From: Bacillota bacterium
Lineage (GTDB): Bacteria > Bacillota > DTU025 > MWDF01
Assembly: GCA_029565935.1 (NCBI GenBank)
Contig: JAKQNF010000002.1
Span: 67,065-131,064 of the forward strand
Direction of reading: 5' to 3'
DNA length: 64,000 nucleotides
The position numbers and the translations under genes were made by a program. Below the pieces are notes generated by a model. It saw only the letters and a program-made list of their open reading frames with translations. It had not been told where the DNA came from and searched no databases. Position 1 is the stretch's first letter; the number at the start of each line of letters is the position of its first letter. Positions 2 through 61,151 of the stretch are shown here, in pieces.

Positions 2-775
2 GGCACGCCAGACTATCTTAACTGCCCGATGGACAAGACACAGTACGACAAGTTCTACGATGCGCTCATAGCTGCCGAGAGGGCCCCTCTTTCAAAGGGC
101 GAGGACATGAAGCTCTACGAGGCTTGCATGCCCATTGAGGAGATGGCCGACAGAGGAAGGGACACTATAAGGTTCGGGCCGCTAAAACCGGTCGGACTTG
201 AAGACCCGAGGACAGGGTCGGAGCCTTACGCCGTCGTACAGCTAAGGCGCGAGGACCTTCCCGGGAGCAGTTATAATATCGTAGGCTTCCAGACAAGGCT
301 CAAATGGCCTGAGCAGAAAAGAGTCTTCTCCATGATACCCGGGCTTGAGAATGCGGAATTCGTCAGATACGGAGTAGTGCACAGGAACACCTACCTCCAT
401 TCACCCGGTCTTCTAGGTCCGGATATGATGTTCTTATCCAGGGAAGGCCTCTTCGCGGCGGGCCAGCTTACGGGATCTGAAGGCTATGTGGAATCTACCG
501 CCACCGGCGCGCTCGCTGGCATAAACGCCGCAAGGCTGGCGTTGGGGCATGACACGCTAGTATTCCCCGAGACTACTTGCATAGGCGCGCTGGCAGCATA
601 CGTTACGCACGGCAAAGGGGACGTTTTCGATCCTATGGGCATCTGCTTCGGCCTGCTTCCTACTCCTAAAGGGCGTATGAGGTCGAAGAAGATGAAAAGG
701 CAGATGCAGATAGATGCTGCCAGGGAGGATTTCGAGGCCTTCATCAAGGAAGCGGGTGATCTGTTTGCCGGATGA
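2..775 (+). CDS. trmFO: tRNA (uracil54-C5)-methyltransferase TrmFO (Gid), C-terminal part; 5' end cut by the window edge
   Basis: The frame is open from base 2 with no upstream stop. The protein (..GTPDYLNCPMDKTQYDKFYDALIAAE..) aligns with the TrmFO C-terminal half. It sits directly upstream of xerC-hslVU as in Bacillus (gid-codV-clpQY). Confidence 0.85.
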   Translation, partial: GTPDYLNCPMDKTQYDKFYDALIAAERAPLSKGEDMKLYEACMPIEEMADRGRDTIRFGPLKPVGLEDPRTGSEPYAVVQLRREDLPGSSYNIVGFQTRLKWPEQKRVFSMIPGLENAEFVRYGVVHRNTYLHSPGLLGPDMMFLSREGLFAAGQLTGSEGYVESTATGALAGINAARLALGHDTLVFPETTCIGALAAYVTHGKGDVFDPMGICFGLLPTPKGRMRSKKMKRQMQIDAAREDFEAFIKEAGDLFAG

Positions 776-1661
776 TACCATCGAGCAGTTCCTGGACTAC
801 ATCTTGCTGGAGAGGAGACTATCACCCAGGACAGCCTCATCTTACCGGCTGGACCTGATTTCGTTCTCCCGATTTATCGAAAAGTCCACTTCCAAGGATT
901 TTAGGCCGGGGTCGGTCCAGAGCATGGAAATCAGGAAGTACTTATCGAGCCTGCAATCCAGAGGACTGGCACGCAGGACTATGTTAAGAAGGCTCGCAGC
1001 CCTCAGGAGCTATTACAAGTTCTGTATCAGAAGAGGGCTCTGCGATGAGAATCCGACAGATTCTCTTGCGCCCATGAGAAGGGACAAGAGACTTCCAAGG
1101 GCTATGGAGTTGGCCGATGTTGAAGCTTTCCTTGCGACGATCGACGGCGGCGGGCCGTTGAAGATAAGGGACAGGGCCATCTTCGAGCTTCTCTATTCCT
1201 CGGGCTTAAGGCTTTCGGAGCTCGTCGGACTGAACCTGCGCGACTATGACGGCTCCGGCTCTACCGTACGGGTCATGGGGAAAGGATCCAAAGAACGGAT
1301 CGCTCCTGTCGGCAGCATCGCCAAGTTCGCCCTTGAGCGCTATCTTCGCGACGCGAGGAGTGTTCTATCTTCGGATAAGGACCAGAAGGCTATCTTCCTT
1401 TCAAGACGAGGAGGCAGGCTCACCGGAAGGCAGGTGCAAAGGCTGATGAGAGGTTACGACATAACGGCGGGCTTGAGCGGAAGCCCGTCGCCGCATGCCC
1501 TTAGGCATTCCTTCGCAACGCACCTGCTGGATTCGGGGGCCGATTTGAGATCGGTGCAGGAGCTGCTGGGACACTCGGACATATCGTCGACACAGATATA
1601 CACTGCCGTGTCCAGGGAACGTCTTATGGAGTCCTATAAGAAGAACCACCCAAGGTCATGA
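756..1661 (+). CDS. xerC: Tyrosine site-specific recombinase XerC (CodV-like)
   Basis: It has the N-terminal core-binding motif IEQFLDYILLERRLS. It has the C-terminal catalytic motifs ..HALRHSFATHLL.., ..LLGHSDISSTQIYT.. The ORF opens at 714, overlapping the trmFO end. The most plausible start is GTG 756 or TTG 765. Synteny is trmFO-xerC-hslV-hslU. Confidence 0.85.
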   Translation: MICLPDDTIEQFLDYILLERRLSPRTASSYRLDLISFSRFIEKSTSKDFRPGSVQSMEIRKYLSSLQSRGLARRTMLRRLAALRSYYKFCIRRGLCDENPTDSLAPMRRDKRLPRAMELADVEAFLATIDGGGPLKIRDRAIFELLYSSGLRLSELVGLNLRDYDGSGSTVRVMGKGSKERIAPVGSIAKFALERYLRDARSVLSSDKDQKAIFLSRRGGRLTGRQVQRLMRGYDITAGLSGSPSPHALRHSFATHLLDSGADLRSVQELLGHSDISSTQIYTAVSRERLMESYKKNHPRS

Positions 1662-35509: not shown

Positions 35510-35530
35510 ATGCGGGAGGGTGATGAGAGC

Positions 35531-36436
35531 ATGCTTCCGGCAATCGAGGACTTCCTTGGTTTTCTTGCCGTCGAAAGAGGGCTGGCCGAGAACTCCCTCA
35601 CCGCTTACGCGCGGGACCTGGAGGATTATGAGGCATTCCTGAAGGGCAGGGGCGGTACCGGAACCTGCACTGTGGAGATGCTCCTTGCCGCCGACGGCAG
35701 GACGGTGGGGCTTTTCGTCGCCCACCTTTCCGGGAAGGGCCTTGCCGCTTCGAGCACGGCCAGGAAGCTGGCCGCCGTGCGCGGCCTTTACAAGTACCTC
35801 GCAAGGCAGGGGACCGTCAAGGCCGACCCTACGGTGGCGGTCGAATCGGTGAGACAAAAGAGGGCGCTTCCGAAATGCTTGAGCCTCGATGAGACGAAGG
35901 CCCTGTTGAGCTCGTTCGAAGGCAGTAATCCCCGGGATTTAAGGGACCTTGCCATGCTCGAGGTGCTCTACGGATGCGGCCTTAGGGTCAGCGAGCTTGT
36001 GAACTTGAAAGTTGGGGACGTCAACACCGAACACGGCTACGTGAGGTGCGTAGGGAAAGGCTCCAAGGAGAGGATAGTGCCGCTTGGCAGCTACGCTGCG
36101 AGGGCGGTGGACGAGTACATGGCAAAAGGCAGGTCGGAGCTGTGCAACCTCAGGCCGTCGCACTGGCTGTTCGTCACCTTCGACGGCAGCCCTATGAGCC
36201 GCCAGGCCTTCTGGAAGAACCTGAAGAAAAGATGCATGGCGGCAGGCATAGGCTCCGAGGTCAGCCCGCATACGCTAAGGCATTCGTTCGCCACCCACAT
36301 GCTGGAGAACGGCGCCGATCTAAGGGCGGTGCAGGAGATGCTCGGACATGCGGACATCGGCACGACGCAGATATACACGCACCTTACGAAGATAAGGCTA
36401 AGACAAGTGTACGACGAGCACCATCCTAGGTCCTAA
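35531..36436 (+). CDS. xerD: Tyrosine site-specific recombinase XerD (RipX-like)
   Basis: MLPAIEDFLGFLAVERGLAENSLTAYARDL..HTLRHSFATHMLENGADLRAVQEMLGHADIGTTQIYTH are XerD motifs. The RBS GGGAGGG lies upstream. The ORF-track start at 35510 is less likely. Confidence 0.85.
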   Translation: MLPAIEDFLGFLAVERGLAENSLTAYARDLEDYEAFLKGRGGTGTCTVEMLLAADGRTVGLFVAHLSGKGLAASSTARKLAAVRGLYKYLARQGTVKADPTVAVESVRQKRALPKCLSLDETKALLSSFEGSNPRDLRDLAMLEVLYGCGLRVSELVNLKVGDVNTEHGYVRCVGKGSKERIVPLGSYAARAVDEYMAKGRSELCNLRPSHWLFVTFDGSPMSRQAFWKNLKKRCMAAGIGSEVSPHTLRHSFATHMLENGADLRAVQEMLGHADIGTTQIYTHLTKIRLRQVYDEHHPRS

Positions 36437-39014: not shown

Positions 39015-39995
39015 ATGAAGAAAGGCACGATACTGAGCGGGATGAGGCCGACCGGAAAGCTGCACCTGGGCAACTACCTTACGTTGAGGAACTGGGTGAA
39101 GCTGCAGGAAGTATACAACTGCAATTTCCCGATAGTCGACTGGCATGCTCTTACGACGGGCTACGAGCACACCGAGGAGCTACCTACCATGATAAGGGAG
39201 ATGGCCCTGGACTGGCTCGCCGCTGGAGTGGACCCCGAGAAGTCGACCGTGTTCGTGCAATCGCAGGTGAAACAGCACGCTGAGATGCACCTGCTGCTTT
39301 CGATGGTCACCCCTCTCGGCTGGCTAGAGCGCTGCCCCACCTACAAGGAGCAGCTCAGGCAGATGTCCGACAGGGAGATACAGACATACGGCTTCCTTGG
39401 GTATCCCGTGCTCATGGCTGCTGATATCCTCCTGTACATGGCCGATACCGTGCCGGTCGGGCAGGACCAGCTGCCGCACCTGGAGCTCGCCAGGGAGATG
39501 GCTAGGCGCTTCAACTTCCTGTACGGCGATACCCTGGTCGAGCCGGACGCGCTGCTTAACAACGTGCCATTGCTTCCAGGTACCGATGGAAGGAAGATGA
39601 GCAAGAGCTACGGCAACTACATCGCCCTGTCCGACGAACCTGACACGGTGGCCAAGTCCATATCCCAGATGGTGACAGACCCCGCCAGGATAAGGAAGAC
39701 GGATCCGGGCCATCCCGACATCTGCACGGTATATGCCTATTACTCGGCATTCTTCCCTGAGATGTTAGGTCAGGTGAGGTTGGAGTGCGAAGGCGCCCAG
39801 ATAGGCTGCGTCGCGTGCAAGAAACGCCTTGCGGCCGTGATGATTGAGGCTCTAGCCCCGATACATGAAAAGAGGGTGAAGCTAGCTTCAGATCCTTCGA
39901 CGATTGACGACATCCTCGCAGAAGGCTCGGCGAGGGCGCGCGAGAAGGCCGAGACTACGATGGAGAAGGTAAGGGCGGCGATGCACCTCGCATGA
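39015..39995 (+). CDS. trpS: Tryptophanyl-tRNA synthetase
   Basis: ILSGMRPTGKLHLGNY (HIGH region) and the KMSKS motif are present. The RBS GGAGGATTT lies upstream. The ORF-track start at 38994 is less likely. Confidence 0.88.
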   Translation: MKKGTILSGMRPTGKLHLGNYLTLRNWVKLQEVYNCNFPIVDWHALTTGYEHTEELPTMIREMALDWLAAGVDPEKSTVFVQSQVKQHAEMHLLLSMVTPLGWLERCPTYKEQLRQMSDREIQTYGFLGYPVLMAADILLYMADTVPVGQDQLPHLELAREMARRFNFLYGDTLVEPDALLNNVPLLPGTDGRKMSKSYGNYIALSDEPDTVAKSISQMVTDPARIRKTDPGHPDICTVYAYYSAFFPEMLGQVRLECEGAQIGCVACKKRLAAVMIEALAPIHEKRVKLASDPSTIDDILAEGSARAREKAETTMEKVRAAMHLA

Positions 39996-40783
39996 TTACA
40001 GTCCCGACCCAAGCCGCAAAAGAGGGGCCCGCGGCATTCAACACCGCCGGCTACAGCGGACCGCTGAGCCTACTGCTGGAGCTCATCGAGCAGCGTAAGG
40101 TGGACATCTGTGAAGTGTCGCTGGCGGACATCACAGATGACTATCTCAGGAGGATAAGCGCCCTAGAATGGCCCGACTTGGAGGAATCTTCCAGGTTCCT
40201 GGTGATAGCCGCGACATTGATATTCATCAAGGCAAGGGTATTGATGCCAAAAAGGAAGGACCTTGAGGCCGCCCAGGAGGAAGAGGAAGGCCCCGATCCC
40301 GCCGAGCTGCTGGTCGACAGGCTAAGGGCGTACAAGCTGTTCAGGGACGCCGCCAGGAAGTTTAAGGTCCTAGAGGCGGAAGCTTCGAGGATGTACGGAC
40401 GCGGCAGGTACGAGCAGCTGGGGGTCAGATGGCAGGGAAATCCCCTCGAGGGGGTCCTTGCGGATGACTTCTGGGAGATAATCCAAAGGCTCGAGGACAG
40501 GAACAAGGAAGCTGAGATCGCTGCGCCCTATGAGGAGACGCCGCTGGCGGATTTCATGAACTCCCTGCTTGGCGCACTCAAGAACAAGAAGAGCGAGGAT
40601 TTCATAAAGGCGCTCGGCGCCGTTAAGGACATGGGTGCTGTGATCGGGAGCCTGCTGGCCCTCCTGGAGCTGGCGAAGATGGGGATAATCACGATAAGCC
40701 AGGCATCGACGGACGGGCCTATATGGATGGCCTGGAGGGAGGAGGCGCAAGATGGACCTGTTGCGGATGAAAGCTCTGATTGA
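39992..40783 (+). CDS. scpA: Segregation and condensation protein A
   Basis: ..FNTAGYSGPLSLLLELIEQRKVDICEVSLADITDDYL.. is the ScpA signature. Confidence 0.8.
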   Translation: MITVPTQAAKEGPAAFNTAGYSGPLSLLLELIEQRKVDICEVSLADITDDYLRRISALEWPDLEESSRFLVIAATLIFIKARVLMPKRKDLEAAQEEEEGPDPAELLVDRLRAYKLFRDAARKFKVLEAEASRMYGRGRYEQLGVRWQGNPLEGVLADDFWEIIQRLEDRNKEAEIAAPYEETPLADFMNSLLGALKNKKSEDFIKALGAVKDMGAVIGSLLALLELAKMGIITISQASTDGPIWMAWREEAQDGPVADESSD

Positions 40784-41300
40784 GGCCATCATCTTCGCTT
40801 CCCCCGAGCCTGTGGACCAGGATGATCTGGCAAGCTTCGTCGGAGTGGACAAGAATACGATGAGCATGCTGCTGAAGGACATCGAAGAAGCCTACGACGC
40901 GCCTGATTCGGGGCTGAGGCTGGTTCGCATAGGCGAGGGGGTGGCGTTTACGACGCATCCTCCGCTCGCCGACGACATATCGGGCTATTTGGCCGCCATA
41001 AGGCATACATCGCTTACGGACGCCTCAATGGAGACGCTGGCGATAATCGCGTACAAGCAGCCTATCACCAAGGCCGAGATCGAGCAGGTAAGGGGTGTCG
41101 GGGCCGAATCGGCGCTCATCACTCTCGCACAAAGGGGCCTGATCACCGAGAAGGGCAGGAAGAGCGCACCGGGCCGGCCGATACTATACGGCACAACGAA
41201 GGAATTCCTGGTCTACATGGGACTCGCGGACCTCAAGTCGCTTCCCGGCCTTGAGGGGATCGACGATGCCGAGGGACCCAAGCTGCCGGGCTTAGAATAG
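40752..41300 (+). CDS. scpB: Segregation and condensation protein B
   Basis: ..ALIEAIIFASPEPV.. and ..LETLAIIAYKQPITKAEIEQVRGV.. are winged-helix ScpB motifs. Confidence 0.8.
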   Translation: MDLLRMKALIEAIIFASPEPVDQDDLASFVGVDKNTMSMLLKDIEEAYDAPDSGLRLVRIGEGVAFTTHPPLADDISGYLAAIRHTSLTDASMETLAIIAYKQPITKAEIEQVRGVGAESALITLAQRGLITEKGRKSAPGRPILYGTTKEFLVYMGLADLKSLPGLEGIDDAEGPKLPGLE

Positions 41301-50206: not shown

Positions 50207-50222
50207 AGTCGAGCCCTCTTTA

Positions 50223-50262
50223 CGGAGAAAAGCCTTCTTATAGGGGCTTTTCTCCGTTTTTT
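50223..50262 (+). terminator. Rho-independent terminator after the parvulin gene
   Basis: CGGAGAAAAGCC-loop-GGGCTTTTCTCCG is followed by TTTTTT. Confidence 0.5.
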
Positions 50263-50273
50263 AATTAGGTGGG

Positions 50274-51617
50274 GTGAAATTGGCAAGGACAATGGCAAAA
50301 GTAAAGAGCGTCGCTGCAGGCTCTCCTGCGGCAAGAGCCGGGCTCATGGCCGGGGACGTGGTTCTGGCCGTCGATGGCTACGAGATGATCGACATAATCG
50401 ATTGGCGGTTTCTCACGTCTGACTACTCCTTCACGATATTTGTGGAGCGTGGAGGCGTGGAACTTGAACTGCAGGTGTTCCGCGATGAGATGGCAGAGCT
50501 TGGCGTTGAGTTCGAAGACATTCTGTTCGACGGTATAAAGGAGTGCGCAAACAGGTGTGTATTCTGTTTCGTCGACCAGTTACCGGATGGAGTAAGGAGT
50601 AGCCTGTGCATCAAGGACGACGATTACAGGCTTTCTTTCCTGCAGGGAAATTTCGTTACGCTTACGAACTGCTCGAAGCGGACTCTGGACAGAATCGTGG
50701 AATTCAGGATGTCCCCAATTTACGTGTCGGTTCACGCGACCGATCCTGTGACGAGGAATCTCATGCTAGGGAGGAAGTCGACGAGACCAATAATGGAAGT
50801 GCTGCGATATCTCGGGGAAAACGGTATTGAGATGCACACCCAGATAGTGGTCGTACCCGGAATGAACGATGGGTACGTGCTTAAAAGGAGCATCGATGAG
50901 TTGTCCAGCCTTCGTCCAGGCTTGCTGTCGATCGGAATCGTACCGGTTGGACTTACTAAGCACAGGAAAGCACATGATAAGGTCCGTTCCGTTTCGGAGG
51001 ATGAAGCGAAACAAACCTTGGATCTTATCGAGGATTTCCAATCGAAATTCGTTTCGTCTTTCGGGACTAGGCTAGTATGGGCATCGGATGAATACTATCT
51101 GAAGGCGGGGCGGGATTTTCCAAACGGTTCATCCTATGAGGGTTACGTTCAGCTCGAAAACGGCATAGGTCTGGCAAGGTCTCTCTCAGACGACGTCGAA
51201 TGCTTACTTTCCAAAAACACGTGGGTAGGGAAGCTAGGAACATCAGACGGCTGGCTACTGACGGGAACGGATGGCGCGAAGGTGATCGGCCCTTTGCTGG
51301 ACAGAATCAAGATGGCATCAGGCTCTAGGGTAAGCATGGTGACTGTGCCGAGCACCTATTTCGGGGGCGGCGTGACGGTGACCGGCCTAGTTACCGGCAG
51401 CGACATCGTGTCAACGATAAACAGGATGGCAAGACGTCCTGAAGATGCAAGGAGACTCATCATCCCGGATGTCATGCTTAGGGATGGTGAGGATGTGTTC
51501 CTCGACGGCATGAGTGTGGACGAAGTAGCTGGCCTTTGCGACATGGACCTTAGTGTGGTCAGCACTGACGCATCAGGGTTGCTTGAGGCTGCCGGTATGC
51601 GAAGGAAGGCGGTATAG
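50274..51617 (+). CDS. PDZ-domain radical-SAM-like protein (DUF512 family), conserved upstream of der in Firmicutes
   Basis: An N-terminal PDZ (..VKSVAAGSPAARAGLMAGDVVLAVDG..) is present. A CANRCVFCF Cys cluster follows. It is 447 aa with a TTG start. Confidence 0.7.
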   Translation: MKLARTMAKVKSVAAGSPAARAGLMAGDVVLAVDGYEMIDIIDWRFLTSDYSFTIFVERGGVELELQVFRDEMAELGVEFEDILFDGIKECANRCVFCFVDQLPDGVRSSLCIKDDDYRLSFLQGNFVTLTNCSKRTLDRIVEFRMSPIYVSVHATDPVTRNLMLGRKSTRPIMEVLRYLGENGIEMHTQIVVVPGMNDGYVLKRSIDELSSLRPGLLSIGIVPVGLTKHRKAHDKVRSVSEDEAKQTLDLIEDFQSKFVSSFGTRLVWASDEYYLKAGRDFPNGSSYEGYVQLENGIGLARSLSDDVECLLSKNTWVGKLGTSDGWLLTGTDGAKVIGPLLDRIKMASGSRVSMVTVPSTYFGGGVTVTGLVTGSDIVSTINRMARRPEDARRLIIPDVMLRDGEDVFLDGMSVDEVAGLCDMDLSVVSTDASGLLEAAGMRRKAV

Positions 51618-51618
51618 G

Positions 51619-52950
51619 ATGACTACGAGACCGATGGTAGCGATAGTAGGAAGGCCCAACGTGGGAAAATCTGCCCTTTTCAACAGGATAATAAGGAGCA
51701 GGGTGTCAATCGTCGAAAGCCAGCCGGGTGTAACCAGAGACCGGATATATGCCGATACACAATGGCAGGGGATGGATTTCGTCATCATAGACACAGGTGG
51801 TATTACGACAGGAAAACAGGATCCTTTGAACGAGAAGGTCCGCGACCAGGCGGAAATCGCAGTCGAACAGGCATCGGTCGTCGTCTTCGTACTGGATGCG
51901 AAGACCGGGCTCATGGCAGAGGACGAAGATGTCGCCAACATAATCAGACATAGCAAGAAGCCTTGCGTGCTTTGCGTCAACAAGGTAGACGATCCAAGGC
52001 ACATGGATTATTCGTTTTGGTCTTTAGGGCTCGGTGAACCGCTCCCTGTGACGGCAGCCCACGGTACTGGAGTCGCAGAACTGCTGGATGCGATAGTCGA
52101 AAAACTCAAGGAGATGGGTTACAAGGAGAATGAGCAGGATGGAGAGACTGCCGAAAACGCCCCGATAAAAGTGGCGTTCGTAGGTAAGCCCAATGTAGGG
52201 AAGTCGTCCATCGTGAACAAATACATCGGCTACGAGAGAAGCATCGTGAGTGATATGCCAGGTACCACTAGGGATGCCATCGACATGGACATCGAAATCG
52301 AAGGAAGATCCTTCGTTCTGATAGACACTGCCGGAATAAGGCGCAAGCCCAGGATAGATACTTCGGTTGAATTCTACTCGGTGGTCAGGAGTATGTCTGC
52401 GATCGAGAGAAGCGACGTTGCCGTTATTGTGCTAGATGGTACCGAAGCTGTTTCTGAGCAGGACGTAAGGATAGCGGGTTTCGCCCATGAAGCTGGGAAG
52501 GCGGTCGTCATCGCTGTAAATAAATGGGATGTCATGGATAGAGAAGAAGGTTACCATGAAGAGAAGATAAAGGAGATTAAAGAGAAACTTTCCTATATGG
52601 ACTACGTTAAGGTTGTCTTTGTCTCAGCTAAGCAAGGAAGGCATCTTGATAGGCTGCTTAAGGCAATCATAGATGCGTTTGAAGCCAATAGAAGGCGCAT
52701 AGCGACAGCCGAGCTCAACAAGTTGCTTGAGGAGGCAGTCCTTCGGTTCCCGCCGCCAGGTGAAAAAGGCAGGCAGCCCAAGCTTCTCTACATTTCGCAG
52801 GTCAGAGTACAGCCTCCTACGTTTGTGCTGTTTACTAATTCACCGGACCTGGTCCATTTCTCCTATGTCAGGTACCTAGAGAACCTTATTCGCGGCGCAT
52901 ATGATTTTTCGGGAACGCCGATGATCATCCACCTAAGGAAGAGGAGTTGA
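51619..52950 (+). CDS. der: Ribosome-biogenesis GTPase Der (EngA), tandem G domains plus KH-like domain
   Basis: Two GxxxxGKS motifs are present (VAIVGRPNVGKSALFN; VAFVGKPNVGKSSIVN). An ATG at 51619 follows the upstream stop. The ORF-track start at 51553 is too early. Confidence 0.9.
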   Translation: MTTRPMVAIVGRPNVGKSALFNRIIRSRVSIVESQPGVTRDRIYADTQWQGMDFVIIDTGGITTGKQDPLNEKVRDQAEIAVEQASVVVFVLDAKTGLMAEDEDVANIIRHSKKPCVLCVNKVDDPRHMDYSFWSLGLGEPLPVTAAHGTGVAELLDAIVEKLKEMGYKENEQDGETAENAPIKVAFVGKPNVGKSSIVNKYIGYERSIVSDMPGTTRDAIDMDIEIEGRSFVLIDTAGIRRKPRIDTSVEFYSVVRSMSAIERSDVAVIVLDGTEAVSEQDVRIAGFAHEAGKAVVIAVNKWDVMDREEGYHEEKIKEIKEKLSYMDYVKVVFVSAKQGRHLDRLLKAIIDAFEANRRRIATAELNKLLEEAVLRFPPPGEKGRQPKLLYISQVRVQPPTFVLFTNSPDLVHFSYVRYLENLIRGAYDFSGTPMIIHLRKRS

Positions 52951-52956
52951 GCCCAC

Positions 52957-53568
52957 ATGGGGATTCTGGCATTGGCAATAGGGTACCTCATAGGGGCCCT
53001 GCCTTTCGGAATAGTGATGACCAAGCTGGTGTTGGGGATAGATATCAGGAAAGTTGGTTCCGGTAATACCGGGACGTCAAACGTAACCCGTGCGCTTGGT
53101 ATTGGCTATGGCTTCATCAACGCCGTTCTAGACATTTCCAAGGGGATAGTGCCTGTTCTGATAGCTAGGTCGATGGGTTTGAGCCTCGCTTGGCAGTGTG
53201 GTGTTTCCTTGGCAGCCGTCATCGGTCATAACTGGCCGATATATACGATGTTCAAGGGAGGAAAGGGTATAGCAACTAGTTTCGGGGCCCTGGTTGTACT
53301 TGAACCGCGATTTCTTCTAATAGTGCCCATATTTGCTATAATCGTCTTATCAACGCGGATTAAGTCTTTGGCTTCGATGACTTCCGCATTTCTGTTAATC
53401 CCTCTCTCCCTGATCCTTAAGGCGCCATGGGAGATCGTGATATTGACTATAGTGATATGCTGCATGGCCATTTATAGGCATAAGGACAACGTCAAGAGGC
53501 TTATGGCAGGGAAGGAGAACAAGATATCATATAAGCTGAAGCCCGATAGATCATTAAAGCAAAAATGA
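52957..53568 (+). CDS. plsY: Glycerol-3-phosphate acyltransferase PlsY
   Basis: LGIDIRKVGSGNTGTSNVTRALG..HNWPIYTMFKGGKGIATSFG are PlsY motifs. It is 203 aa. Confidence 0.85.
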   Translation: MGILALAIGYLIGALPFGIVMTKLVLGIDIRKVGSGNTGTSNVTRALGIGYGFINAVLDISKGIVPVLIARSMGLSLAWQCGVSLAAVIGHNWPIYTMFKGGKGIATSFGALVVLEPRFLLIVPIFAIIVLSTRIKSLASMTSAFLLIPLSLILKAPWEIVILTIVICCMAIYRHKDNVKRLMAGKENKISYKLKPDRSLKQK

Positions 53569-53583
53569 TGCAGGAGGGATCTT

Positions 53584-54267
53584 ATGTTCCTTATGGTCGC
53601 GTGGAAGGAGTTCGCAATAGACCTATGCCTTCTGGTGTTGTCGGTCTTGTTCGGATCCTTGGTGGGATATGAGAGGGAGGTACACGGCAAATCAGCAGGC
53701 CTTAGGACGCACGCGCTTGTTTGTGTAGGAGCATCTCTTCTTACCATTGTCTCCATGAGGGGCTTCGGTGCCTGGGAGGGTGGATTAAGAGACCCAGGTC
53801 GTATAGTAGGTCAAATGGTTGCCGGTATCGGTTTTTTGGGTGCAGGTACCATATTAAGAGACGGCTTGAGCATAAAAGGCCTTACGACGGCCGCCAGCCT
53901 ATGGGCGACCTGCATGATAGGCATTTCAGTAGGTGCAGGCCTCGTACAGTACGCTGCACTGGGAACATTACTGGTTGTCATAGTTCTCAGCCAGTTCAGC
54001 AAAGTTGAGCGCATGCTTTCTGTGAGAGCGTCTTCGATGCTTAAGATAACCGCCACTGACAGGCCGGGTCTCCTAGGTGACGTGGCCGCCTTGTTGGGAA
54101 GGTATTCGATAAATATACTTAAGAGCGAAATCAACAGCGATCTCGATACGGGCATAGTGATGATTGACCTGGAACTGAGGAAAGTCATAAAGGATACCCG
54201 AGTCTGTGACGTAATACATGAGCTGTCCAAGATACAGGGCGTCCGGAACTATGAGATCCGGGAATAG
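53584..54267 (+). CDS. MgtC/SapB-family membrane protein with C-terminal ACT-like domain
   Basis: The MgtC N-terminal TM region (..GSLVGYEREVHGKSAGLRTHALVCVGASLL..) is followed by a soluble ACT-like tail. Confidence 0.7.
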   Translation: MFLMVAWKEFAIDLCLLVLSVLFGSLVGYEREVHGKSAGLRTHALVCVGASLLTIVSMRGFGAWEGGLRDPGRIVGQMVAGIGFLGAGTILRDGLSIKGLTTAASLWATCMIGISVGAGLVQYAALGTLLVVIVLSQFSKVERMLSVRASSMLKITATDRPGLLGDVAALLGRYSINILKSEINSDLDTGIVMIDLELRKVIKDTRVCDVIHELSKIQGVRNYEIRE

Positions 54268-54274
54268 GAGATAT

Positions 54275-55060
54275 ATGAAGATCCTAGTTTCAAATGACGA
54301 TGGCATACACGCCGAAGGACTCGCGTCTTTGTGCAGTTGCCTTACCGAGGCTGGTTTCCAGGTGTACGTTTGCGCACCCGACAGGGAAAGAAGCGCAGCA
54401 AGCCATGCGCTTACGATGTATAGCCCACTTAGACTTATCGAGGTAGGTAATCCCAACTTCGATGCGTTTAGGGTATGGTCAGCCGATGGCACACCCGCAG
54501 ATTGCGTAAAGATAGCCCTAGAGCTTCTGATGAAATCGGATCCACCGGATTATGTGATCTCCGGAGTAAACAGAGGCCCGAATTTGGGCACTGATATCCT
54601 ATATTCCGGCACCGTCGCAGCGGCCGCCGAAGGGTGTTTCGCGGGCATTCCATCGCTTGCCGTCTCTTGTACCGATAAGATGAATCCAAACTACCAGACC
54701 GCATCCAAATTCGTCTCAGCGCATATATCTGACATATTTGCGAACGAACTGCCGCAGGGGACCATGCTTAACATAAACGTACCGGCCGACATAACGAGAC
54801 AAGTGGCCAACACTCCCTATATGTTTACACGGGCAGGGACCATGAAGTACGTCGATATATTCGACGTCAGGCACGATCCGCGAGGTAGGGAGTACATATG
54901 GATGTCAGGTAACCCCATGGACCTGGACATTGAAGAGGATTTCGATACTGTGGCCATCAAGAAAGGCCTAATATCCATTACACCAATCAAGTTTGATGTA
55001 ACGGATTACTCGTTGCTTGCGAAGCTTAGGAACAGTAGTGGTGGCCATAGGTTGCTATAA
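54275..55060 (+). CDS. surE: 5'/3'-nucleotidase SurE
   Basis: MKILVSNDDGIHAEGL is the canonical SurE N-terminus. The RBS AGGAG lies upstream. Its TAA stop lies inside dif-like site 2. Confidence 0.85.
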   Translation: MKILVSNDDGIHAEGLASLCSCLTEAGFQVYVCAPDRERSAASHALTMYSPLRLIEVGNPNFDAFRVWSADGTPADCVKIALELLMKSDPPDYVISGVNRGPNLGTDILYSGTVAAAAEGCFAGIPSLAVSCTDKMNPNYQTASKFVSAHISDIFANELPQGTMLNINVPADITRQVANTPYMFTRAGTMKYVDIFDVRHDPRGREYIWMSGNPMDLDIEEDFDTVAIKKGLISITPIKFDVTDYSLLAKLRNSSGGHRLL

Positions 55061-55078
55061 TATTTATTATGTAAACTT
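55051..55078 (+). other. dif-like XerC/XerD core site 2: GGTTGCTATAA-TATTTA-TTATGTAAACT
   Basis: The right arm is an 11/11 match to the B. subtilis dif XerD arm. It is 26/28 identical to site 1. It is immediately followed by TTCTAGG, which echoes the B. subtilis XerC arm on the opposite strand. Confidence 0.55.
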
Positions 55079-55093
55079 CTAGGTATAAAATAC

Positions 55094-55169
55094 TGGCAGG
55101 GGAGACAGGACTTGAACCCGCAACCCTCGGTTTTGGAGACCGATGCTCTGCCAATTGAGCTACTCCCCT
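55094..55169 (-). tRNA. trnW: tRNA-Trp (anticodon CCA)
   Basis: The cloverleaf was folded by eye. The acceptor is AGGGGAG/CTCCCCT with discriminator G plus CCA. The anticodon loop is CTCCAAA. The T-loop is GGTTCAAGTCC. It is about 80% identical to E. coli tRNA-Trp. Confidence 0.9.
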
Positions 55170-55262
55170 GCGATGGCGTATTCATATGCAATAAGTATTT
55201 TACGTGCACAAGGCGTTATTGTCAAATGATTTAAAAGTAGAATACCGTGAGGAGGTAGACTT

Positions 55263-55838
55263 ATGTCGGAGTTAAAAGTACCCGTAGGGATTTCGAACAG
55301 ACATCTTCATTTAAGCGAGGCCGACCTTCATAAACTATTTGGGGAAGGCGCTAGCCTTACAGTAAAGAAGGACCTCTCTCAGAAGGGTCAGTTCGCTTGC
55401 GAAGAAGTCGTAAACCTGATAGGACCCAAGGGCAGCCTCAATAATGTCAGGATACTCGGACCTACAAGGAAACAAACGCAGGTTGAAGTATCTAATACAG
55501 ATGCAAGGACTTTAGGTCTAGAGGCACCAGTACGCGACAGCGGGGACCTAAAGGAGAGCACCCCCATCAAGATAGTAGGGCCCAAGGGCGAGCTGAGCCT
55601 TACTGAAGGGTGCATAGTGGCTAAAAGGCACGTTCACATGAACGAAGAAGATGCCGCCAAGTATGGATTAAAGGACAGGCAGATCGTAAAGGTGGGCGTA
55701 AAGGGAAGCCGCGGGCTGGTATTTGACGAAGTCCTTATAAGGGTACATCCGACATTTGTGCTTGAAATGCATCTGGATACCGATGAGGCGAATGCCTGTG
55801 GCTTGAAGAACGGTGAATTGGTATCTGTCCTTTTATGA
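55263..55838 (+). CDS. pduL: PduL/EutD-type phosphate acyltransferase (phosphotransacylase), orphan
   Basis: VPVGISNRHLHLSEADL .. VAKRHVHMNEEDA are the two PduL repeat signatures. It is 191 aa. No microcompartment genes are nearby. Confidence 0.7.
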   Translation: MSELKVPVGISNRHLHLSEADLHKLFGEGASLTVKKDLSQKGQFACEEVVNLIGPKGSLNNVRILGPTRKQTQVEVSNTDARTLGLEAPVRDSGDLKESTPIKIVGPKGELSLTEGCIVAKRHVHMNEEDAAKYGLKDRQIVKVGVKGSRGLVFDEVLIRVHPTFVLEMHLDTDEANACGLKNGELVSVLL

Positions 55839-56287
55839 CCCCAGATGAAGTCAAGAAGGTCATGCTAGGTGATTCGCGGACTAGCACCGAGCTTGATTTC
55901 GGAAGTCAAAGGCATTATGAAGGCGGCTCATCGCTAGTAATACCTGTAATGCAAGATAGGTTGCTCATGGTATTCAATAATGCTCGCGATGGTTGGGAGT
56001 TCCCCGGAGGAAAGAGAAATGCCGGGGAATCTCCTTTACAATGTGCCGTAAGGGAACTATATGAAGAAACCGGCCTGACTGGTAGGGACTTCCTCAGGCT
56101 CTGTTCTTATAAGGTGGTCAAGGACGGTCTCGTTATGGACGGCGATATCTTTTCTTGCAAGATAGATACCTTACCGGTTGCATTTCTCGATACTAAAGTG
56201 TCTGGTGCTGGCCTTTTTTCAATTAGTCCGCATAAGCTAGCGATTACTGACGGTTACATTGAGTATTTCTTCGAATTATTGAAATAG
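55835..56287 (+). CDS. NUDIX hydrolase
   Basis: The Nudix box is GGKRNAGESPLQCAVRELYEETGL. Its ATG overlaps the pduL stop (ATGA), suggesting translational coupling. Confidence 0.7.
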   Translation: MTPDEVKKVMLGDSRTSTELDFGSQRHYEGGSSLVIPVMQDRLLMVFNNARDGWEFPGGKRNAGESPLQCAVRELYEETGLTGRDFLRLCSYKVVKDGLVMDGDIFSCKIDTLPVAFLDTKVSGAGLFSISPHKLAITDGYIEYFFELLK

Positions 56288-56308
56288 CTTTATTTGAGGT
56301 GATGATTA

Positions 56309-56521
56309 ATGCCCATATTTGATTTCAAATGTGAAAACTGTGGATATACCTTCGAAACCCTGGCAAAGAGAGATGAACAGGTTAACTGTCCAAAATGCAA
56401 CTCCGAGAGAACAAGAAAGCTCTTGTCGAAGTTCGGCTTCTCATGTGGTTCTAACTTTAGATCCTCATTAGGTTCAAGCGATTGTAGTGGTTGCAGTAGT
56501 ACTTCCTGTAGCCCTACATGA
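56309..56521 (+). CDS. FmdB-family zinc-ribbon protein with Ser/Cys-rich tail
   Basis: MPIFDFKCENCGYTFE...CPKCNS is a CxxC-x17-CxxC zinc ribbon. It is 70 aa. The C-terminus is SSLGSSDCSGCSSTSCSPT. Confidence 0.6.
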   Translation: MPIFDFKCENCGYTFETLAKRDEQVNCPKCNSERTRKLLSKFGFSCGSNFRSSLGSSDCSGCSSTSCSPT

Positions 56522-56565
56522 AGCCATAGCCATTAGGGCCGGTTCGGCCCTAAGATAATAATATA

Positions 56566-56593
56566 AGTTTACATAATGTGTATTATGCGACAT
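56566..56593 (-). other. dif-like XerC/XerD core site 3 (minus strand): ATGTCGCATAA-TACACA-TTATGTAAACT
   Basis: The right arm is an 11/11 match to the B. subtilis XerD arm. The left arm matches the E. coli dif XerC arm GGTGCGCATAA at 8 of 11 positions. It is inverted relative to site 2 and lies 1.5 kb away. Confidence 0.5.
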
Positions 56594-56701
56594 CATAGAT
56601 TTCAGTCATAATGCTCCCCCACATATCAGAAGTTGTTAGTAGGAGAAGTACGTGGAAAAGTTATGATGAAGTGCTGAATCCTCATGTATGCGTCGAATAG
56701 T

Positions 56702-56746
56702 AAAAATAGAGTGCCGCGGTCACGAACTACGGCACTCTATTTTTGG
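56702..56746. terminator. Bidirectional rho-independent terminator between the zinc-ribbon gene (+) and yneA-like gene (-)
   Basis: AAAAAT-AGAGTGCCG-loop-CGGCACTCT-ATTTTTGG. A-tract and T-tract flank a 9-bp stem. Confidence 0.5.
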
Positions 56747-56750
56747 CTAA

Positions 56751-57071
56751 TTATACTGCAGGCTTAGGGATAACTATGACTCTGCCTGGATATACGATAC
56801 CATCCTCAATGTCGTTCAACTCTATTGTCCTTGCTACTGCTGATCTTATATCGGTTTCGTAACCATAGACTTTTCTTACGCATTCCCAGACCGTATCACC
56901 TACGCGGACAAGGACCTCTTCAAGTTCAGTTGCATCGTTTCTACCCATCACGCAGGAACTGAATATAATGCCGAAGGTCAATATGAAAACGGATATGCCA
57001 GTAACGGTCAGGATTAGTTTAAGGGGGGATTTTCCCCTCAATCTCTTTGTCCTGTACATAATACCTATCAT
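56751..57071 (-). CDS. yneA: YneA-like SOS-induced cell-division inhibitor (N-terminal TM plus C-terminal LysM)
   Basis: It is divergent from lexA as in B. subtilis. About 106 aa run from MIGIMYRTKRLRGK with the RBS GGGTGGG upstream. The ORF-track N-terminal extension is rejected because it would include the LexA box. A C-terminal LysM (..VLVRVGDTVWECVRKVYG..GRVIVIP) is present. A minus-strand promoter TTGACA-17-TATACT at 57112-57140 is read directly. Confidence 0.6.
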   Translation of the reverse strand: MIGIMYRTKRLRGKSPLKLILTVTGISVFILTFGIIFSSCVMGRNDATELEEVLVRVGDTVWECVRKVYGYETDIRSAVARTIELNDIEDGIVYPGRVIVIPKPAV

Positions 57072-57091
57072 TAATCCCACCCACCCCTTAC

Positions 57092-57105
57092 CGAACATAT
57101 GTTCT
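57092..57105. promoter_or_regulatory. LexA (SOS) box 1: CGAACATATGTTCT
   Basis: It matches the Bacillus LexA/DinR consensus CGAACRNRYGTTCG at 13 of 14 positions. It sits at the predicted yneA transcription start. Confidence 0.6.
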
Positions 57106-57147
57106 ACTTTGAGTATAGGGGCCTGTAGGGCTTGTGTCAACAACAAT

Positions 57148-57161
57148 CGAACAAATGTTTG
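57148..57161. promoter_or_regulatory. LexA (SOS) box 2: CGAACAAATGTTTG, overlapping the lexA -35 (TTGTAT 57159-57164; -10 TATATT 57182-57187)
   Basis: One mismatch to the consensus half-site. This is the classic autoregulatory position. Confidence 0.5.
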
Positions 57162-57215
57162 TATACTTGATTGCTGTCTGATATATTAGTGTTAATCAAG
57201 AATCGAGGTGTAATC

Positions 57216-57830
57216 ATGCCTAATCTTAATGATAGAGAGGCGCAGATACTAAGCTTCATATCAAAGGAAGCTGCGGAGAAGGGTTTTCCCCCTTCCGTGA
57301 GAGAAATATGCGCTGCGGTAGGACTAAAATCAACATCTACAGTGCATGGTTATCTGAACTCACTAGAAAAGAAGGGTTTCATAAGGCGTGATCTCACAAA
57401 ACCAAGGGCAATCGACGTAATCCAGGATACGGTAGACTCAATCAACGTTAGGAGAATAGCAAAGGGAGTGCCTTTGGTAGGAGCTGTTACCGCAGGCATG
57501 CCAATACTGGCCACAGAGAACATCACCGACTATATCCCCCTACCCAAGGATTGGGTAGGCGACGACCAGGTATTTATGCTTAAGGTTAAGGGCGATAGTA
57601 TGATAGGTGCAGGAATCAATGAAAGTGACATGCTTATCGTAAGGAGTCAATCCGACGCTCAAAACGGTGAGATCGTAGTCGCGATGATAAATGATGAGGC
57701 GACGGTTAAGCGTATCTATAAAACGAAACAAGCTATAGAGCTTCATCCGGAGAATCCGGCATATCAAGTGATAATCTCACCGGATACCAAGGTAATAGGA
57801 AAAGTTATCGGGTTGCTCAGGAAAATATAA
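57216..57830 (+). CDS. lexA: LexA repressor
   Basis: MPNLNDREAQILSFISKEAAEKGFPPSVREICAAVGLKSTSTVHGYLNSLEKKGFIRR is the wHTH region. The C-terminal S24 peptidase has the Ala-Gly cleavage region and Ser/Lys dyad (..VKGDSMIGAGI..). The RBS CGAGGTG lies upstream. Confidence 0.9.
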   Translation: MPNLNDREAQILSFISKEAAEKGFPPSVREICAAVGLKSTSTVHGYLNSLEKKGFIRRDLTKPRAIDVIQDTVDSINVRRIAKGVPLVGAVTAGMPILATENITDYIPLPKDWVGDDQVFMLKVKGDSMIGAGINESDMLIVRSQSDAQNGEIVVAMINDEATVKRIYKTKQAIELHPENPAYQVIISPDTKVIGKVIGLLRKI

Positions 57831-57831
57831 T

Positions 57832-57858
57832 GCCCCGCTTTTTAGCGGGGCTATTCAT
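57832..57858. terminator. Terminator hairpin between lexA (+) and the convergent unknown gene (-)
   Basis: GCCCCGC-TTTTTA-GCGGGGC is followed by a T-rich tract. Confidence 0.4.
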
Positions 57859-57880
57859 ATTCATTTGGATACGTGCACCT

Positions 57881-58240
57881 CTAGGCCCTTATAGATGATG
57901 TATCCTTGATATCTTTCTTCTCTACCCCACATGCTCTGAAGAAAATCTCCAAAGCCTGTTTCGTACCCCTATCCTCCGGGTTACTGTTTTCAAGCTTGTC
58001 GTAGAAGTTGGGAAGCTGCTGATACCATTGTTTTGCCATGAATATCGCACTTTCAACACCCTCGTTGTTTATGACGCCAATTAGTTTGTCATAGGTGTTC
58101 CTTCTCGTTGAAGCTTGCTTCTCCCAGAAATCGGGGTTCTCGGTGAGCTGCGCAGCGAGGAGATCCTGTTTCGCGATGGCCCTGAAGCTCTCGAGCCCCC
58201 GCAGTATATCCTCGCTTGATATGAGGTGCATGTTACTCAC
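57881..58240 (-). CDS. Hypothetical soluble protein (119 aa), co-directional with and immediately downstream of the family-4 UDG
   Basis: The ORF has a clean ATG and lies 48 nt after the UDG stop. I recognise no motif (..ENPDFWEKQASTRRNTYDKLIGVINNEG..WYQQLPNFYDKLENSNPEDRG..). Confidence 0.4.
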   Translation of the reverse strand: MSNMHLISSEDILRGLESFRAIAKQDLLAAQLTENPDFWEKQASTRRNTYDKLIGVINNEGVESAIFMAKQWYQQLPNFYDKLENSNPEDRGTKQALEIFFRACGVEKKDIKDTSSIRA

Positions 58241-58288
58241 ACCTTTCCTATTATTCTGATGACCCTATATCTATTATACGATAATCTA

Positions 58289-58945
58289 TCACATTTCCTC
58301 TCTAAGTAAAGACATTACTTTCTTCATGTCATGCCATACGTCAATCTTCCTGGATGGGTCCCTGAGCAGGGCCGCAGGATGGAACGTAGGCATGTACTCT
58401 ATGTTGTCGGCTTCAATGAAGCTGCCCCTCGCCTTAGTTATACCTTCCTTCGTTCCTGGTATCATCGCCTTATAAGCGGTAGATCCTAATAGAACGATCA
58501 CTTTCGGTTTTATTATTTCAATTTGTCTTTTTAAATATACAATACAAGTATCTATTTCATCCTTTTCGGGAACTCTATTGCTAGGTGGTCGACACTTGAC
58601 TACATTACCTATGAATACTTCCTCTCTTTTTAGGCCCATCGCATTGATTATCGCATCCAAGAGCCTTCCAGCAGCTCCTACGAAGGGCCTGCCTTTTACG
58701 TCTTCATCGGCGCCGGGCCCTTCTCCTATGAACATAATCCTGGCATCTAGGCTACCCTCACCAGGAACTGTATTTATCCTTGTAGATCCTAGTTTGCATG
58801 ATTGGCACTTGGCGACTTCGTTAATCACGGTAGCCATAAGTACGTTCTTGTCATAGATGCCCATGTTGATAATGGGTTCCTCGTCTTTATTCTGCGACTT
58901 TCCAGCAAATAAGTTTAGCTGCTCATCAGTGTTCAATGGGGTCAC
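58289..58945 (-). CDS. udg: Uracil-DNA glycosylase, family 4 (thermophile-type UDG, 4Fe-4S)
   Basis: ..CQSCKLGSTRINTVPGEGSLDARIMFIGEGPGADEDVKGRPFVGAAGRLLD.. is a family-4 UDG motif (GEGPG, FVG.AG). It is 218 aa. Confidence 0.8.
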   Translation of the reverse strand: MTPLNTDEQLNLFAGKSQNKDEEPIINMGIYDKNVLMATVINEVAKCQSCKLGSTRINTVPGEGSLDARIMFIGEGPGADEDVKGRPFVGAAGRLLDAIINAMGLKREEVFIGNVVKCRPPSNRVPEKDEIDTCIVYLKRQIEIIKPKVIVLLGSTAYKAMIPGTKEGITKARGSFIEADNIEYMPTFHPAALLRDPSRKIDVWHDMKKVMSLLREEM

Positions 58946-58958
58946 TCCCAGAAAGTAA

Positions 58959-58987
58959 TTGCACTTACATAGCTTCTGTTATATCAT
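58959..58987 (+). promoter_or_regulatory. Putative sigma-A promoter of the tRNA-Pro/tRNA-Leu pair (TTGCAC - 17 nt - TATCAT)
   Basis: Read directly. The -10 ends 21 nt before tRNA-Pro. Confidence 0.35.
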
Positions 58988-59008
58988 ATTATTTGTCTAA
59001 ACAGCAGT

Positions 59009-59085
59009 CGAGGTGTAGCGCAGTTTGGTAGCGCGCTTGGTTCGGGACCAAGAGGCCCCGGGTTCAAGTCCCGGCACCTCGACCA
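59009..59085 (+). tRNA. tRNA-Pro (anticodon CGG)
   Basis: The acceptor is CGAGGTG/CACCTCG plus A plus CCA. The D-stem is GCGC. The anticodon stem CTTGG/CCAAG has loop TTCGGGA. The T-arm is CCGGGTTCAAGTCCCGG. Confidence 0.9.
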
Positions 59086-59091
59086 TTTTTT

Positions 59092-59175
59092 GCGAGAGTG
59101 GCGGAACGGCAGACGCACCAGACTTAGGATCTGGCGAGGCGACTCGTGCGGGTTCAAGTCCCGCCTCTCGCACCA
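59092..59175 (+). tRNA. tRNA-Leu (anticodon TAG), long variable arm
   Basis: The acceptor is GCGAGAG/CTCTCGC plus A plus CCA. The anticodon stem CCAGA/TCTGG has loop CTTAGGA. The long extra arm is typical of tRNA-Leu. The T-arm is GCGGGTTCAAGTCCCGC. Confidence 0.9.
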
Positions 59176-59442
59176 TTAAGCTCATTTTACAATATCGACC
59201 TTCGATGTTAACACCTCTAAATACGCGTATTAATCATTGGTACTTTTTACTCCAATGAAATATGCCATGCCTTCTCCCCTATTCCCTATGTCAACTAATG
59301 CATAGGATTAAAATAAGGCACAAATTCTTAATGTCTTAAACACGTATAATGTATCGGTGGGCTTCCCCGGCTTGCTTAGTAATTCTGAACTAGCTCACTA
59401 TAGAATAGCTGATGTTAACGCGATTATAGGAGGCAATTGTAA

Positions 59443-60573: not shown

Positions 60574-60616
60574 CATCCAAGTAGAAATCCATAGATAATG
60601 CTAGGTTCCAGAATAG

Positions 60617-60646
60617 TGAAGGCAGGAGATCTCTCCTGCCTTCACT
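60617..60646. repeat. Perfect 30-bp palindrome GTGAAGGCAGGAGAT|CTCTCCTGCCTTCAC, 44 nt after the DegT stop
   Basis: Read directly as 15-bp arms with no loop. No U-tract follows on either strand, so it is not a canonical intrinsic terminator. Confidence 0.6.
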
Positions 60647-61151
60647 AGCATACTAGATGCATTTTCTTAACGCACAAATACCTTTCCTTTATAGATCAAC
60701 ACTCCTGCGATCCCAAAACCCGTTTACAAAGAAGTATCATAACCGCCAGCATTTCGCCCATTCAACGTAGATATATCTATTCTAGGCATCTACCATCGTT
60801 CTGATGTATAATTTTTCAACCACCAATTATCATGATTAAGCCTCCTCCCATTCTGAATTCAAGGCCATCTATGTTACTCTGCAGTATAACGCAGTCATGA
60901 TACCTCTGTTATAATAACGCCAAGGATTGTGTATCGTTGCATCTTTTTCTTCCTTTAGTGAACTCATATACATATCGAGCTAGAGACGCCATTCCTTGAC
61001 CTTTTCTTTGTCAATGGATAAGATGCCCCGGTAATATTTACCTCTATCTCTCATCCTCCATGCTTCCCTACGACCAACATTAAACATTGTATTAGAATCA
61101 TCTTATCCATTTATCCGCATATGAGCATACTTTGTTGTTATCTGGACTCGT

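Follow-up and report, generated by a model that had tools for sequence, protein, structure and literature searches.

Does a pair of inverted dif-like sites at a replication terminus delimit a mobile module, or may such a pair come about around genes that were resident there beforehand? The question is raised by a 64,000-nucleotide stretch of the chromosome of an uncultured Bacillota bacterium (NCBI GenBank assembly GCA_029565935.1, contig JAKQNF010000002.1, positions 67,065 to 131,064 of the forward strand), here termed the window, in which an initial annotation had described two inverted XerC/XerD sites on either side of a 1.5-kb set of genes and had likened the arrangement to the so-called dif modules. 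Three dif-like sites, numbered 1 to 3 from left to right, are considered here (Table 1). In the reading that is favoured, and that is regarded as probable without being secure, site 3 is the dif of the chromosome, sites 1 and 2 are XerD-only sites of the kind known as XDS, and the bracketed genes are residents.

Three dif-like sites in the window

Three copies of the core ATAA-N6-TTATGTAAAC are found in the 64-kb window, as against none in 100 dinucleotide-preserving shuffles, and the presence of dif-like sites in the window is real and far beyond chance. A rescan of the window with one mismatch allowed in the 11-mer returned no further sites of the same architecture. Both 28-mers of the annotated inverted pair, i.e., sites 2 and 3, are present, that of site 3 exactly where it had been placed on the minus strand and that of site 2 with coordinates shifted by one base (55050-55077, earlier 55051-55078). 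Their XerD arms face inward, as had been described, with 1488 bp between the sites, and are identical to one another; the shared 11-mer, TTATGTAAACT, is printed as the XerD arm of both B. subtilis and S. aureus dif (PMC3025954, PMC11040001), in agreement with the annotated match to the B. subtilis arm (PMC3025954).

The XerD arm of site 1 equals the dif arm at ten of eleven positions, the sole difference being at the last, variable position. The centres of sites 1 and 2 are 6 bp long and AT-rich, and the inner ATAA is present in both with T as the fifth base, while the outer left arm of site 2 matches the XerC arm at only one of seven positions. Furthermore, the centre of site 2 (TATTTA) differs from that of site 3 (TACACA) at three of six positions and matches no other site centre in the window.

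The replication terminus and regional GC content

A chromosomal dif is expected at the replication terminus (PMC3025954). The cumulative G-C count rises steadily from base 1, forms a plateau at ~56.5-57.8 kb with its maximum at 57,832, and then falls, and this fall continues for at least 16 kb in same-species contigs that reach 10 kb past the window. The octamer GGGNAGGG, which resembles the FtsK orienting polar sequences (KOPS), is present to the left of the sites in 15 copies on the plus strand and one on the minus strand; its last plus copy lies at 54,831 and its first minus copy at 57,538, and gene orientation changes over at the same place as the skew and the polarity of GGGNAGGG. Because of the skew plateau and the octamer polarity, the replication terminus of this uncultured Bacillota bacterium, whose species is abundant in anaerobic digesters, is placed within the window. 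As to the outcome that the initial annotation had named as speaking against its own reading, a terminus elsewhere with a separate canonical dif, the terminus falls at these sites, and the canonical dif found there is site 3.

The segment between sites 2 and 3 had further been singled out for its low GC content. Its 46% is indeed well below the 57% of bases 1-49000, but the lowered value is not specific to the segment, the 6 kb left of site 2 having 51% and the 5.4 kb on the right 44.5%; since the immediate flanks are equally low, the low GC content is a feature of the terminus region. Over ~13 kb centred on the terminus (~49000-62000), GC content falls from ~57% to 44-51%, independently of the dif-like sites.

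Site 3 as the predicted chromosomal dif

Site 3 exhibits an 11-6-11 layout with an ATAA-N6-TTAT inner palindrome and distinct XerC and XerD arms. The likeness of its left arm to that of E. coli is borne out at eight of eleven positions, the arm being nearer to that of E. coli than to that of Bacillus. To find inverted or alternative junctions, public metagenome contigs were scanned for ATGTCGCATAA-N6-TTATGTAAA with the centre left free. The arms of site 3 are identical in at least 119 metagenome contigs from soils, sediments and waters; the matches listed comprise 65 different central regions, and none of them is on a contig that is related to the window or derives from this organism. As the arms recur in unrelated metagenome contigs, they represent a widespread canonical dif sequence.

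Relatives of the window were gathered via PduL homologues. The nearest species in GTDB is ‘Firmicutes bacterium ADurb.Bin153’ (L008), with a nucleotide identity of ~82%; a third species is represented by L207-209 (PduL 79%), and the more distant lineages L215, L216 and L210/211 (PduL 64-66%) serve as outgroups. In every relative examined, A[T/C]GTCGCATAA-N6-TTATGT[A/T]AA is found directly beside the 3' end of the yneA-like gene, and in six related contig sets (L008, L207-209, L215, L216, L210/211) this yneA-adjoining dif is situated at the local skew maximum. An alignment of four species (the window, L008, L207 and L215) presents the 28-mer of site 3 as an invariant island while the flanks diverge; even in L215, whose flanks cannot be aligned with the window, the 28-mer is invariant. 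Site 3 is the predicted dif of this chromosome, i.e., its candidate XerCD dimer-resolution site. XerC would bind to ATGTCGCATAA and XerD to TTATGTAAACT, and sister copies would recombine across TACACA, resolving chromosome dimers; the reaction would presumably be activated by a translocase of the FtsK/SpoIIIE type that is steered by skewed G-rich motifs.

The dif of L210 (11504-11531) and L216 (11285-11312) is on the plus strand with the centre TATATA, and that of L215 (14186-14213), the window (56566-56593) and the ingroup on the minus strand with the centre TACACA. Judging from this comparison, the orientation of dif relative to the replichores has evidently changed within the clade, flipping between close lineages at a fixed position beside yneA-lexA.

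The DNA that adjoins dif is itself variable. Homology between the window and L008 ends exactly at 56593, the outer edge of the XerC arm, and resumes at 56761; the gap measures 167 bp in the window versus 712 bp in L008 (12377-13088), where it holds a GNAT gene, and no second dif-like end was found there. Unrelated genes (GNAT, DinB, DUF72 or Fpg) adjoin dif in other lineages, and the abutting DNA is therefore regarded as a small indel hotspot. The possibility that the GNAT gene of L008 is the same as that of L210/L216, carried along with the XerC arm, was considered and rejected: the proteins are only 27% identical and thus point to independent acquisitions.

Site 2 and the genes between sites 2 and 3

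Site 2 occurs in the three closest species only (the window, L008 and L207) and is absent from the outgroups L215, L216 and L210/211, in which a single dif is found within ±10 kb. What the three species have in common is an island composed of the inner TAA, the AT-rich centre, which is TATATA in L008 and L207, and the XerD arm. Two of them have GGTTGCTATAA as the left arm, which there forms the end of the surE frame, and L207 has GATTACCGTAA; the difference amounts to changes at five of eleven positions, whereas the XerC arm of dif is identical at all eleven in the same species. The overlap of surE and site 2 is lineage-specific, surE of L207 terminating before the site.

The annotated content of the segment, namely tRNA-Trp, PduL, NUDIX and zinc-ribbon genes, was fully recovered, and an Rfam scan of 54.5-57.5 kb returned no RNA besides the tRNA. 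In all five lineages tRNA-Trp (minus strand) is directly upstream of pduL (plus strand). From pduL towards dif, NUDIX and zinc-ribbon homologues follow one another as they do in the window in L008, L207 and L215, and the order is seen in part in L210, which has the zinc-ribbon gene there. PduL homologues down to 64% identity are all encoded within surE...lexA synteny. Because the same gene order and strands are found in outgroups with a single dif, the supposed cargo is ancestral, and on this comparative reading site 2 is younger than the 1.5 kb of resident DNA that it encloses together with site 3. Site 2 would then have arisen in the ancestor of the three close species, thereby bracketing the resident 1.5 kb.

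These data bear directly on the proposal of a chromosomal dif module, in which the two inverted Xer sites form the ends of a cassette that XerCD recombination transfers from one replicon to another. Its formal likeness to the window is close, comprising inverted sites, inward XerD arms, divergent centres and a non-consensus XerC arm, and Acinetobacter xrs pairs have been described in like terms (PMC11705084). However, outgroups without site 2 have tRNA-Trp, pduL, NUDIX and zinc-ribbon genes in the same order and on the same strands, on the left of their only dif, the 64% limit of PduL identity is reached without leaving the surE...lexA context, the GC content of the segment is no different from that of its flanks, and site 2 has no XerC-type outer arm. 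Among the contigs looked up, none lacked the segment or carried it in another context, and a scan of viral contigs for the site-2 type of sequence gave one unrelated match, within an open reading frame. A mobile pdif-like module, as initially proposed, is consequently abandoned here as extremely improbable.

An XerCD-invertible switch had also been envisaged, in which the 1.5-kb segment is turned round by exchange between sites 2 and 3; the flipped junction would read GGTTGCTATAA-N6-TTATGTAAACT followed by TATATTATTATCTTAGGG. The inverted orientation, the identical XerD arms and the presence of both recombinase genes are what such a switch would call for, but the centres, TATTTA and TACACA, differ at half of their positions. 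Xer exchange requires matching centres, and in Acinetobacter inverted pairs with divergent centres undergo no intramolecular recombination (PMC11705084). Moreover, the seven loci shown for this species in which both sites are covered (L001-L004, L007, L219 and L220, from several independent samples) all share one orientation, and further same-species places, grouped as having mostly the same neighbouring proteins, give no sign of another arrangement. The gene orientation is likewise the same in three species and three outgroup lineages, so that no inverted segment was seen in any of these loci and lineages. A comparison of relatives for presence, absence or inversion of the segment, which had been suggested at the outset, thus finds it always present and never inverted, and a switch of this kind is held to be just as extremely improbable as the module.

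Three contigs of misleading first appearance were set aside. The contigs L005 and L006 start 164 bp upstream of pduL, which could be taken for a breakpoint at site 2; the break is inside tRNA-Trp (window position 55099) and is of the repeat type that arises in assembly. That two independent assemblies break within this tRNA gene suggests a second, near-identical copy of tRNA-Trp in the genome. In a high-GC soil contig (L152, Ga0137408_1461599), an inverted pair of identical dif sites, separated by 2 kb, might have offered a parallel; as the whole 4.6-kb contig is a near-perfect palindrome, it was rejected as an assembly artefact.

A further alternative sees in site 2 a relic or a second, redundant dif, with an XerC arm that has decayed or that acts as a weak XerC site through cooperativity with XerD. 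In its plus orientation and, in L008 and L207, also in its TATATA centre, site 2 agrees with the lone dif of L210 and L216, site 3 matches the dif of L215 in orientation and centre, the orientation of dif has evidently changed in the clade, and XerC arms far from the consensus still allow catalysis in Acinetobacter (PMC11705084). Yet site 2 lies across tRNA-Trp and pduL from the position of the outgroup dif, and the orientation of those genes is unchanged; being on the opposite side of an unflipped tRNA-Trp/pduL pair, site 2 is not the positional orthologue of the outgroup dif. Its perfect XerD arm and spacing have, besides, been kept in three species while the intergenic surroundings diverged, and site 1, which is of the same design, is located 21 kb from the terminus, where a recombination site directly repeated with respect to site 2 would pose a danger. 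A relic or redundant dif is considered unlikely on this balance. The annotated option of a true dif accompanied by a pseudo-site accordingly holds for its first part, site 3 being a conserved canonical dif at the terminus, and fails in its second, site 2 being no decaying pseudo-site but a conserved island with the architecture of an XerD-only site.

It is very improbable, finally, that site 2 is still a substrate of XerC and XerD and that the inverted pair acts as a chromosomal dif module, either through rare inversion or through an exchange of tRNA-Trp/pduL between chromosomes by two successive intermolecular Xer events, as has been proposed for Acinetobacter plasmids. If it were so, the pair formed by sites 2 and 3 would be the first chromosomal dif module in Bacillota.

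Site 1 and the xerD promoter

Site 1 is located ~22 bp upstream of the likely xerD start, beside the ribosome-binding site, and overlaps an extended -10 element (TGCTATAAT). It recurs upstream of xerD in relatives, as TGATGCTATAA-TAATTA-TTATGTAAACA in L212 (9950-9977; XerD 94% identical) and as GGATGCTATAA-TATTTA-TTATGTAAACA in L214 (356-383; XerD 84%), while L213 (~9950-9985; XerD 73%) keeps the XerD arm and the TGGTATAAT box at a spacing of 7 and so no longer has the spacing of dif. Four species thus retain the XerD arm together with the extended -10 element. Site 1 is absent in L217 and L218 (Hydrogenispora and another Bacillota metagenome-assembled genome), where spoIIM precedes xerD, and a scan for a -35 element at site 1 found none. 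The NUDIX gene upstream of xerD has its stop codon, TAA (35490-35492), within the ATAA of site 1.

An XerD-arm site on the xerD promoter that is retained in four species suggests autoregulation, and it is tentatively put forward that XerD may repress its own promoter via site 1, which would tie the level of XerD to the occupancy of the terminus sites. No report of XerD autoregulation was found in the literature searched.

A related alternative holds that sites 1 and 2 are mainly transcriptional, each combining an extended -10 promoter (TGCTATAAT) and an operator downstream of it, for xerD and the pduL operon, respectively, and that the likeness to dif is incidental. The motif TGnTATAAT is present in both sites of the window, L213 retains the -10 element together with the XerD arm despite the lost dif spacing, and site 1 is placed ~22 bp ahead of the xerD start and next to its ribosome-binding site. 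On the other hand, the operator sequence that is conserved coincides exactly with the XerD arm, which leaves XerD as the most likely binder and makes this alternative overlap at site 1 with the XDS-like reading; site 2 is directed into an antisense tRNA gene, site 2 of L207 lacks TGnTATAAT, and no -35 element accompanies site 1. A mainly transcriptional role of both sites is deemed improbable.

Sites 1 and 2 as candidate XDS-type sites

In the published accounts, the XDS of B. subtilis and S. aureus are sites at which XerD binds without XerC and unloads Smc-ScpAB (PMC9226527, PMC11840125, PMC11894783). Their layout is there given as a bona fide XerD arm, a degenerate centre of 5-6 bp and the five innermost base pairs of an opposite arm of XerD type, with no XerC arm (PMC9226527), and their location as the terminus region (PMC11840125). 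Sites 1 and 2 of the window resemble this description in having an XerD arm and a 6-bp AT-rich centre, and in that the opposite arm is represented by its innermost bases only; they are situated within 21 kb of dif, and scpA and scpB are encoded in the same window. The primary study of XDS is reportedly that of Karaboja et al. 2021.

On the left replichore, site 2 lies 1.5 kb and site 1 21 kb from dif. By analogy with XDS, XerD alone, possibly as a dimer, would occupy both sites, marking the last 21 kb of this replichore, and would unload Smc-ScpAB there; at site 1 it may in addition repress the xerD promoter. The overlap of site 1 with this promoter is a point in which it differs from XDS.

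Several observations weigh against the assignment of sites 1 and 2 to the XDS kind. Their inner pentamer is TATAA or CGTAA, versus CATAA in XDS, and the likeness was drawn from the published description of the layout. The 17 kb on the right-hand side of dif yielded no matching site, so that the distribution in the 73 kb available is one-sided, and site 2 is only 1.5 kb from dif, where the gain from an unloading site is hard to see. Furthermore, AT-rich dif-like sequences also resemble -10 boxes, and a role as promoter or operator could explain part of the conservation.

Two unrelated metagenome contigs, L167 (2964-2991 and 3317-3344) and L202 (52-79 and 405-432), have a second site ~330 bp from a canonical dif and in direct orientation to it, with a good XerD arm and a left arm that is not of XerC type. 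Secondary XerD-arm sites beside dif may be more widespread.

The unloading of SMC by XerD at XDS has so far rested on B. subtilis and S. aureus, and the window provides comparative sequence evidence for XerD-arm-only, XDS-type sites in a deep, uncultured lineage of Bacillota. It follows from the same comparison that an inverted pair of dif-like sites at the terminus need not be a mobile module. As a rule for genome scans, the outer left arm of a candidate site should be compared with the XerC arm of the true dif, and synteny examined in relatives, before a dif module is called.

Genes of the window

The features discussed are collected in Table 1. Both xerC and xerD had been claimed for the window and are found in it by NCBIfam (714-1661, XerC just sub-threshold, and 35510/35531-36436). 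The xerD product contains Phage_integrase and SAM-like domains (Pfam), and the xerC product is 37% identical to XerD.

Table 1. Dif-like sites, genes and other features of the 64,000-nucleotide window (positions are those of the window)
Feature	Position	Strand	Sequence or remark
xerC (codV-like)	714..1661	+	Best equivalog TIGR02224 XerC, 328.4 bits, just below the 335.15 cut-off
Site 1	35482-35509	+	GGATGCTATAA-TAATTA-TTATGTAAACA; dif-like, XerD-arm type, upstream of xerD
xerD	35510..36436	+	Likely start ATG 35531; TIGR02225, 350.6 bits (cut-off 329.6)
scpA + scpB	39992..41300	+	Pfam SMC_ScpA, SMC_ScpB; kleisin and accessory subunits of the Smc-ScpAB condensin
surE	54218..55060	+	Stop codon TAA (55058-55060) inside the left arm of site 2
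Site 2	55050-55077	+	GGTTGCTATAA-TATTTA-TTATGTAAACT; dif-like, candidate XDS-like site: XerD arm and non-XerC left arm
tRNA-Trp (CCA)	55094..55169	-	Promoter-like site of its own at 55225-55197
pduL	55263-55838	+	Resident gene between sites 2 and 3
NUDIX gene	55835-56287	+	Resident gene between sites 2 and 3
FmdB-type zinc-ribbon gene	56309-56521	+	Resident gene between sites 2 and 3
Site 3	56566-56593	-	ATGTCGCATAA-TACACA-TTATGTAAACT; predicted chromosomal dif, XerC arm towards yneA
Variable spacer	56594..56760		Directly outside the XerC arm of dif
yneA-like gene	56751-57146	-	Divergent SOS pair with lexA; constant right-hand neighbours of dif
lexA	57171-57830	+	Divergent SOS pair with the yneA-like gene

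Just past the end of the window, a pair of TTATGTCAACC sequences was examined as possible Xer sites and rejected, these being 6-6-6 palindromes (GGTTGAC-TATTAT-GTCAACC). The two copies are 75 bp apart (L001 18925-18952 and 19000-19027, i.e., ~64.19-64.29 kb in window terms), between tRNA-Pro(GGG) and a gene of the RNase_H_2 family. In L207 (16322-16424), one copy is GTTTAC-TATTAT-GTAAAC, with both half-sites altered together. The palindrome is probably the operator of a regulator and not an Xer site, although it shares TTATGT(A/C)AAC.

Comparison with known systems

Site 3 resembles the dif sites of Firmicutes in its 11-6-11 layout, its ATAA/TTAT palindrome, an XerD arm identical to that of B. 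subtilis, its position at the GC-skew switch and the presence of both xerC and xerD. The dif of B. subtilis is ACTTCCTAGAA-TATATA-TTATGTAAACT, that of S. aureus ACTTCCTATAA-TATATA-TTATGTAAACT and that of E. coli GGTGCGCATAA-TGTATA-TTATGTTAAAT. The centre TACACA of site 3 is unlike the TATATA of the two Firmicutes sites, and the orientation of dif with respect to the replichores varies in this clade among close lineages.

Integrative mobile elements exploiting Xer (IMEX) at dif, such as CTXphi, TLCphi and the gonococcal genetic island, are flanked by directly repeated sites that enclose foreign DNA. The window is like them in having a second dif-like site near the chromosomal dif at the terminus, but its sites are in inverted orientation and enclose native DNA, which has the GC content of its flanks; an IMEX integrated at dif was rejected on the grounds of the inverted sites and the native intervening genes.

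Recombinase genes are linked to their own site in the difSL-xerS system of streptococci and the difH-xerH system of epsilon-proteobacteria. In some archaea, dif is upstream of the xerA operon (PMC11840125). Site 1 is comparable in that it directly precedes the gene for its expected binder, yet the linked sites are functional terminus dif sites, whereas the real dif of the window is 21 kb from site 1, and site 1 has no XerC arm.

The pdif or dif modules of Acinetobacter are xrs-flanked cassettes on Rep_3 plasmids and, as lately reported, on chromosomes too (PMC6449649, PMC11705084, PMC12907356). With these the window shares an inverted pair of Xer-type sites, different centres, one poor XerC arm and a small set of bracketed genes. 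It departs from them in forming a single bracket and no alternating array, in that one of its sites is the predicted dif of the chromosome itself, in the lack of a plasmid context and, above all, in the absence of mobility, the bracketed genes being ancestral and keeping their synteny where relatives have only one of the two sites. As the defining feature of a module, the mobility of the cassette, was put to the test and no movement was found, the resemblance of sites 2 and 3 to a pdif module is formal only; from its sequence features, site 3 appears to be an ordinary member of the dif family, and sites 1 and 2, which have most of the sequence features of XDS, are best filed as XDS-like.

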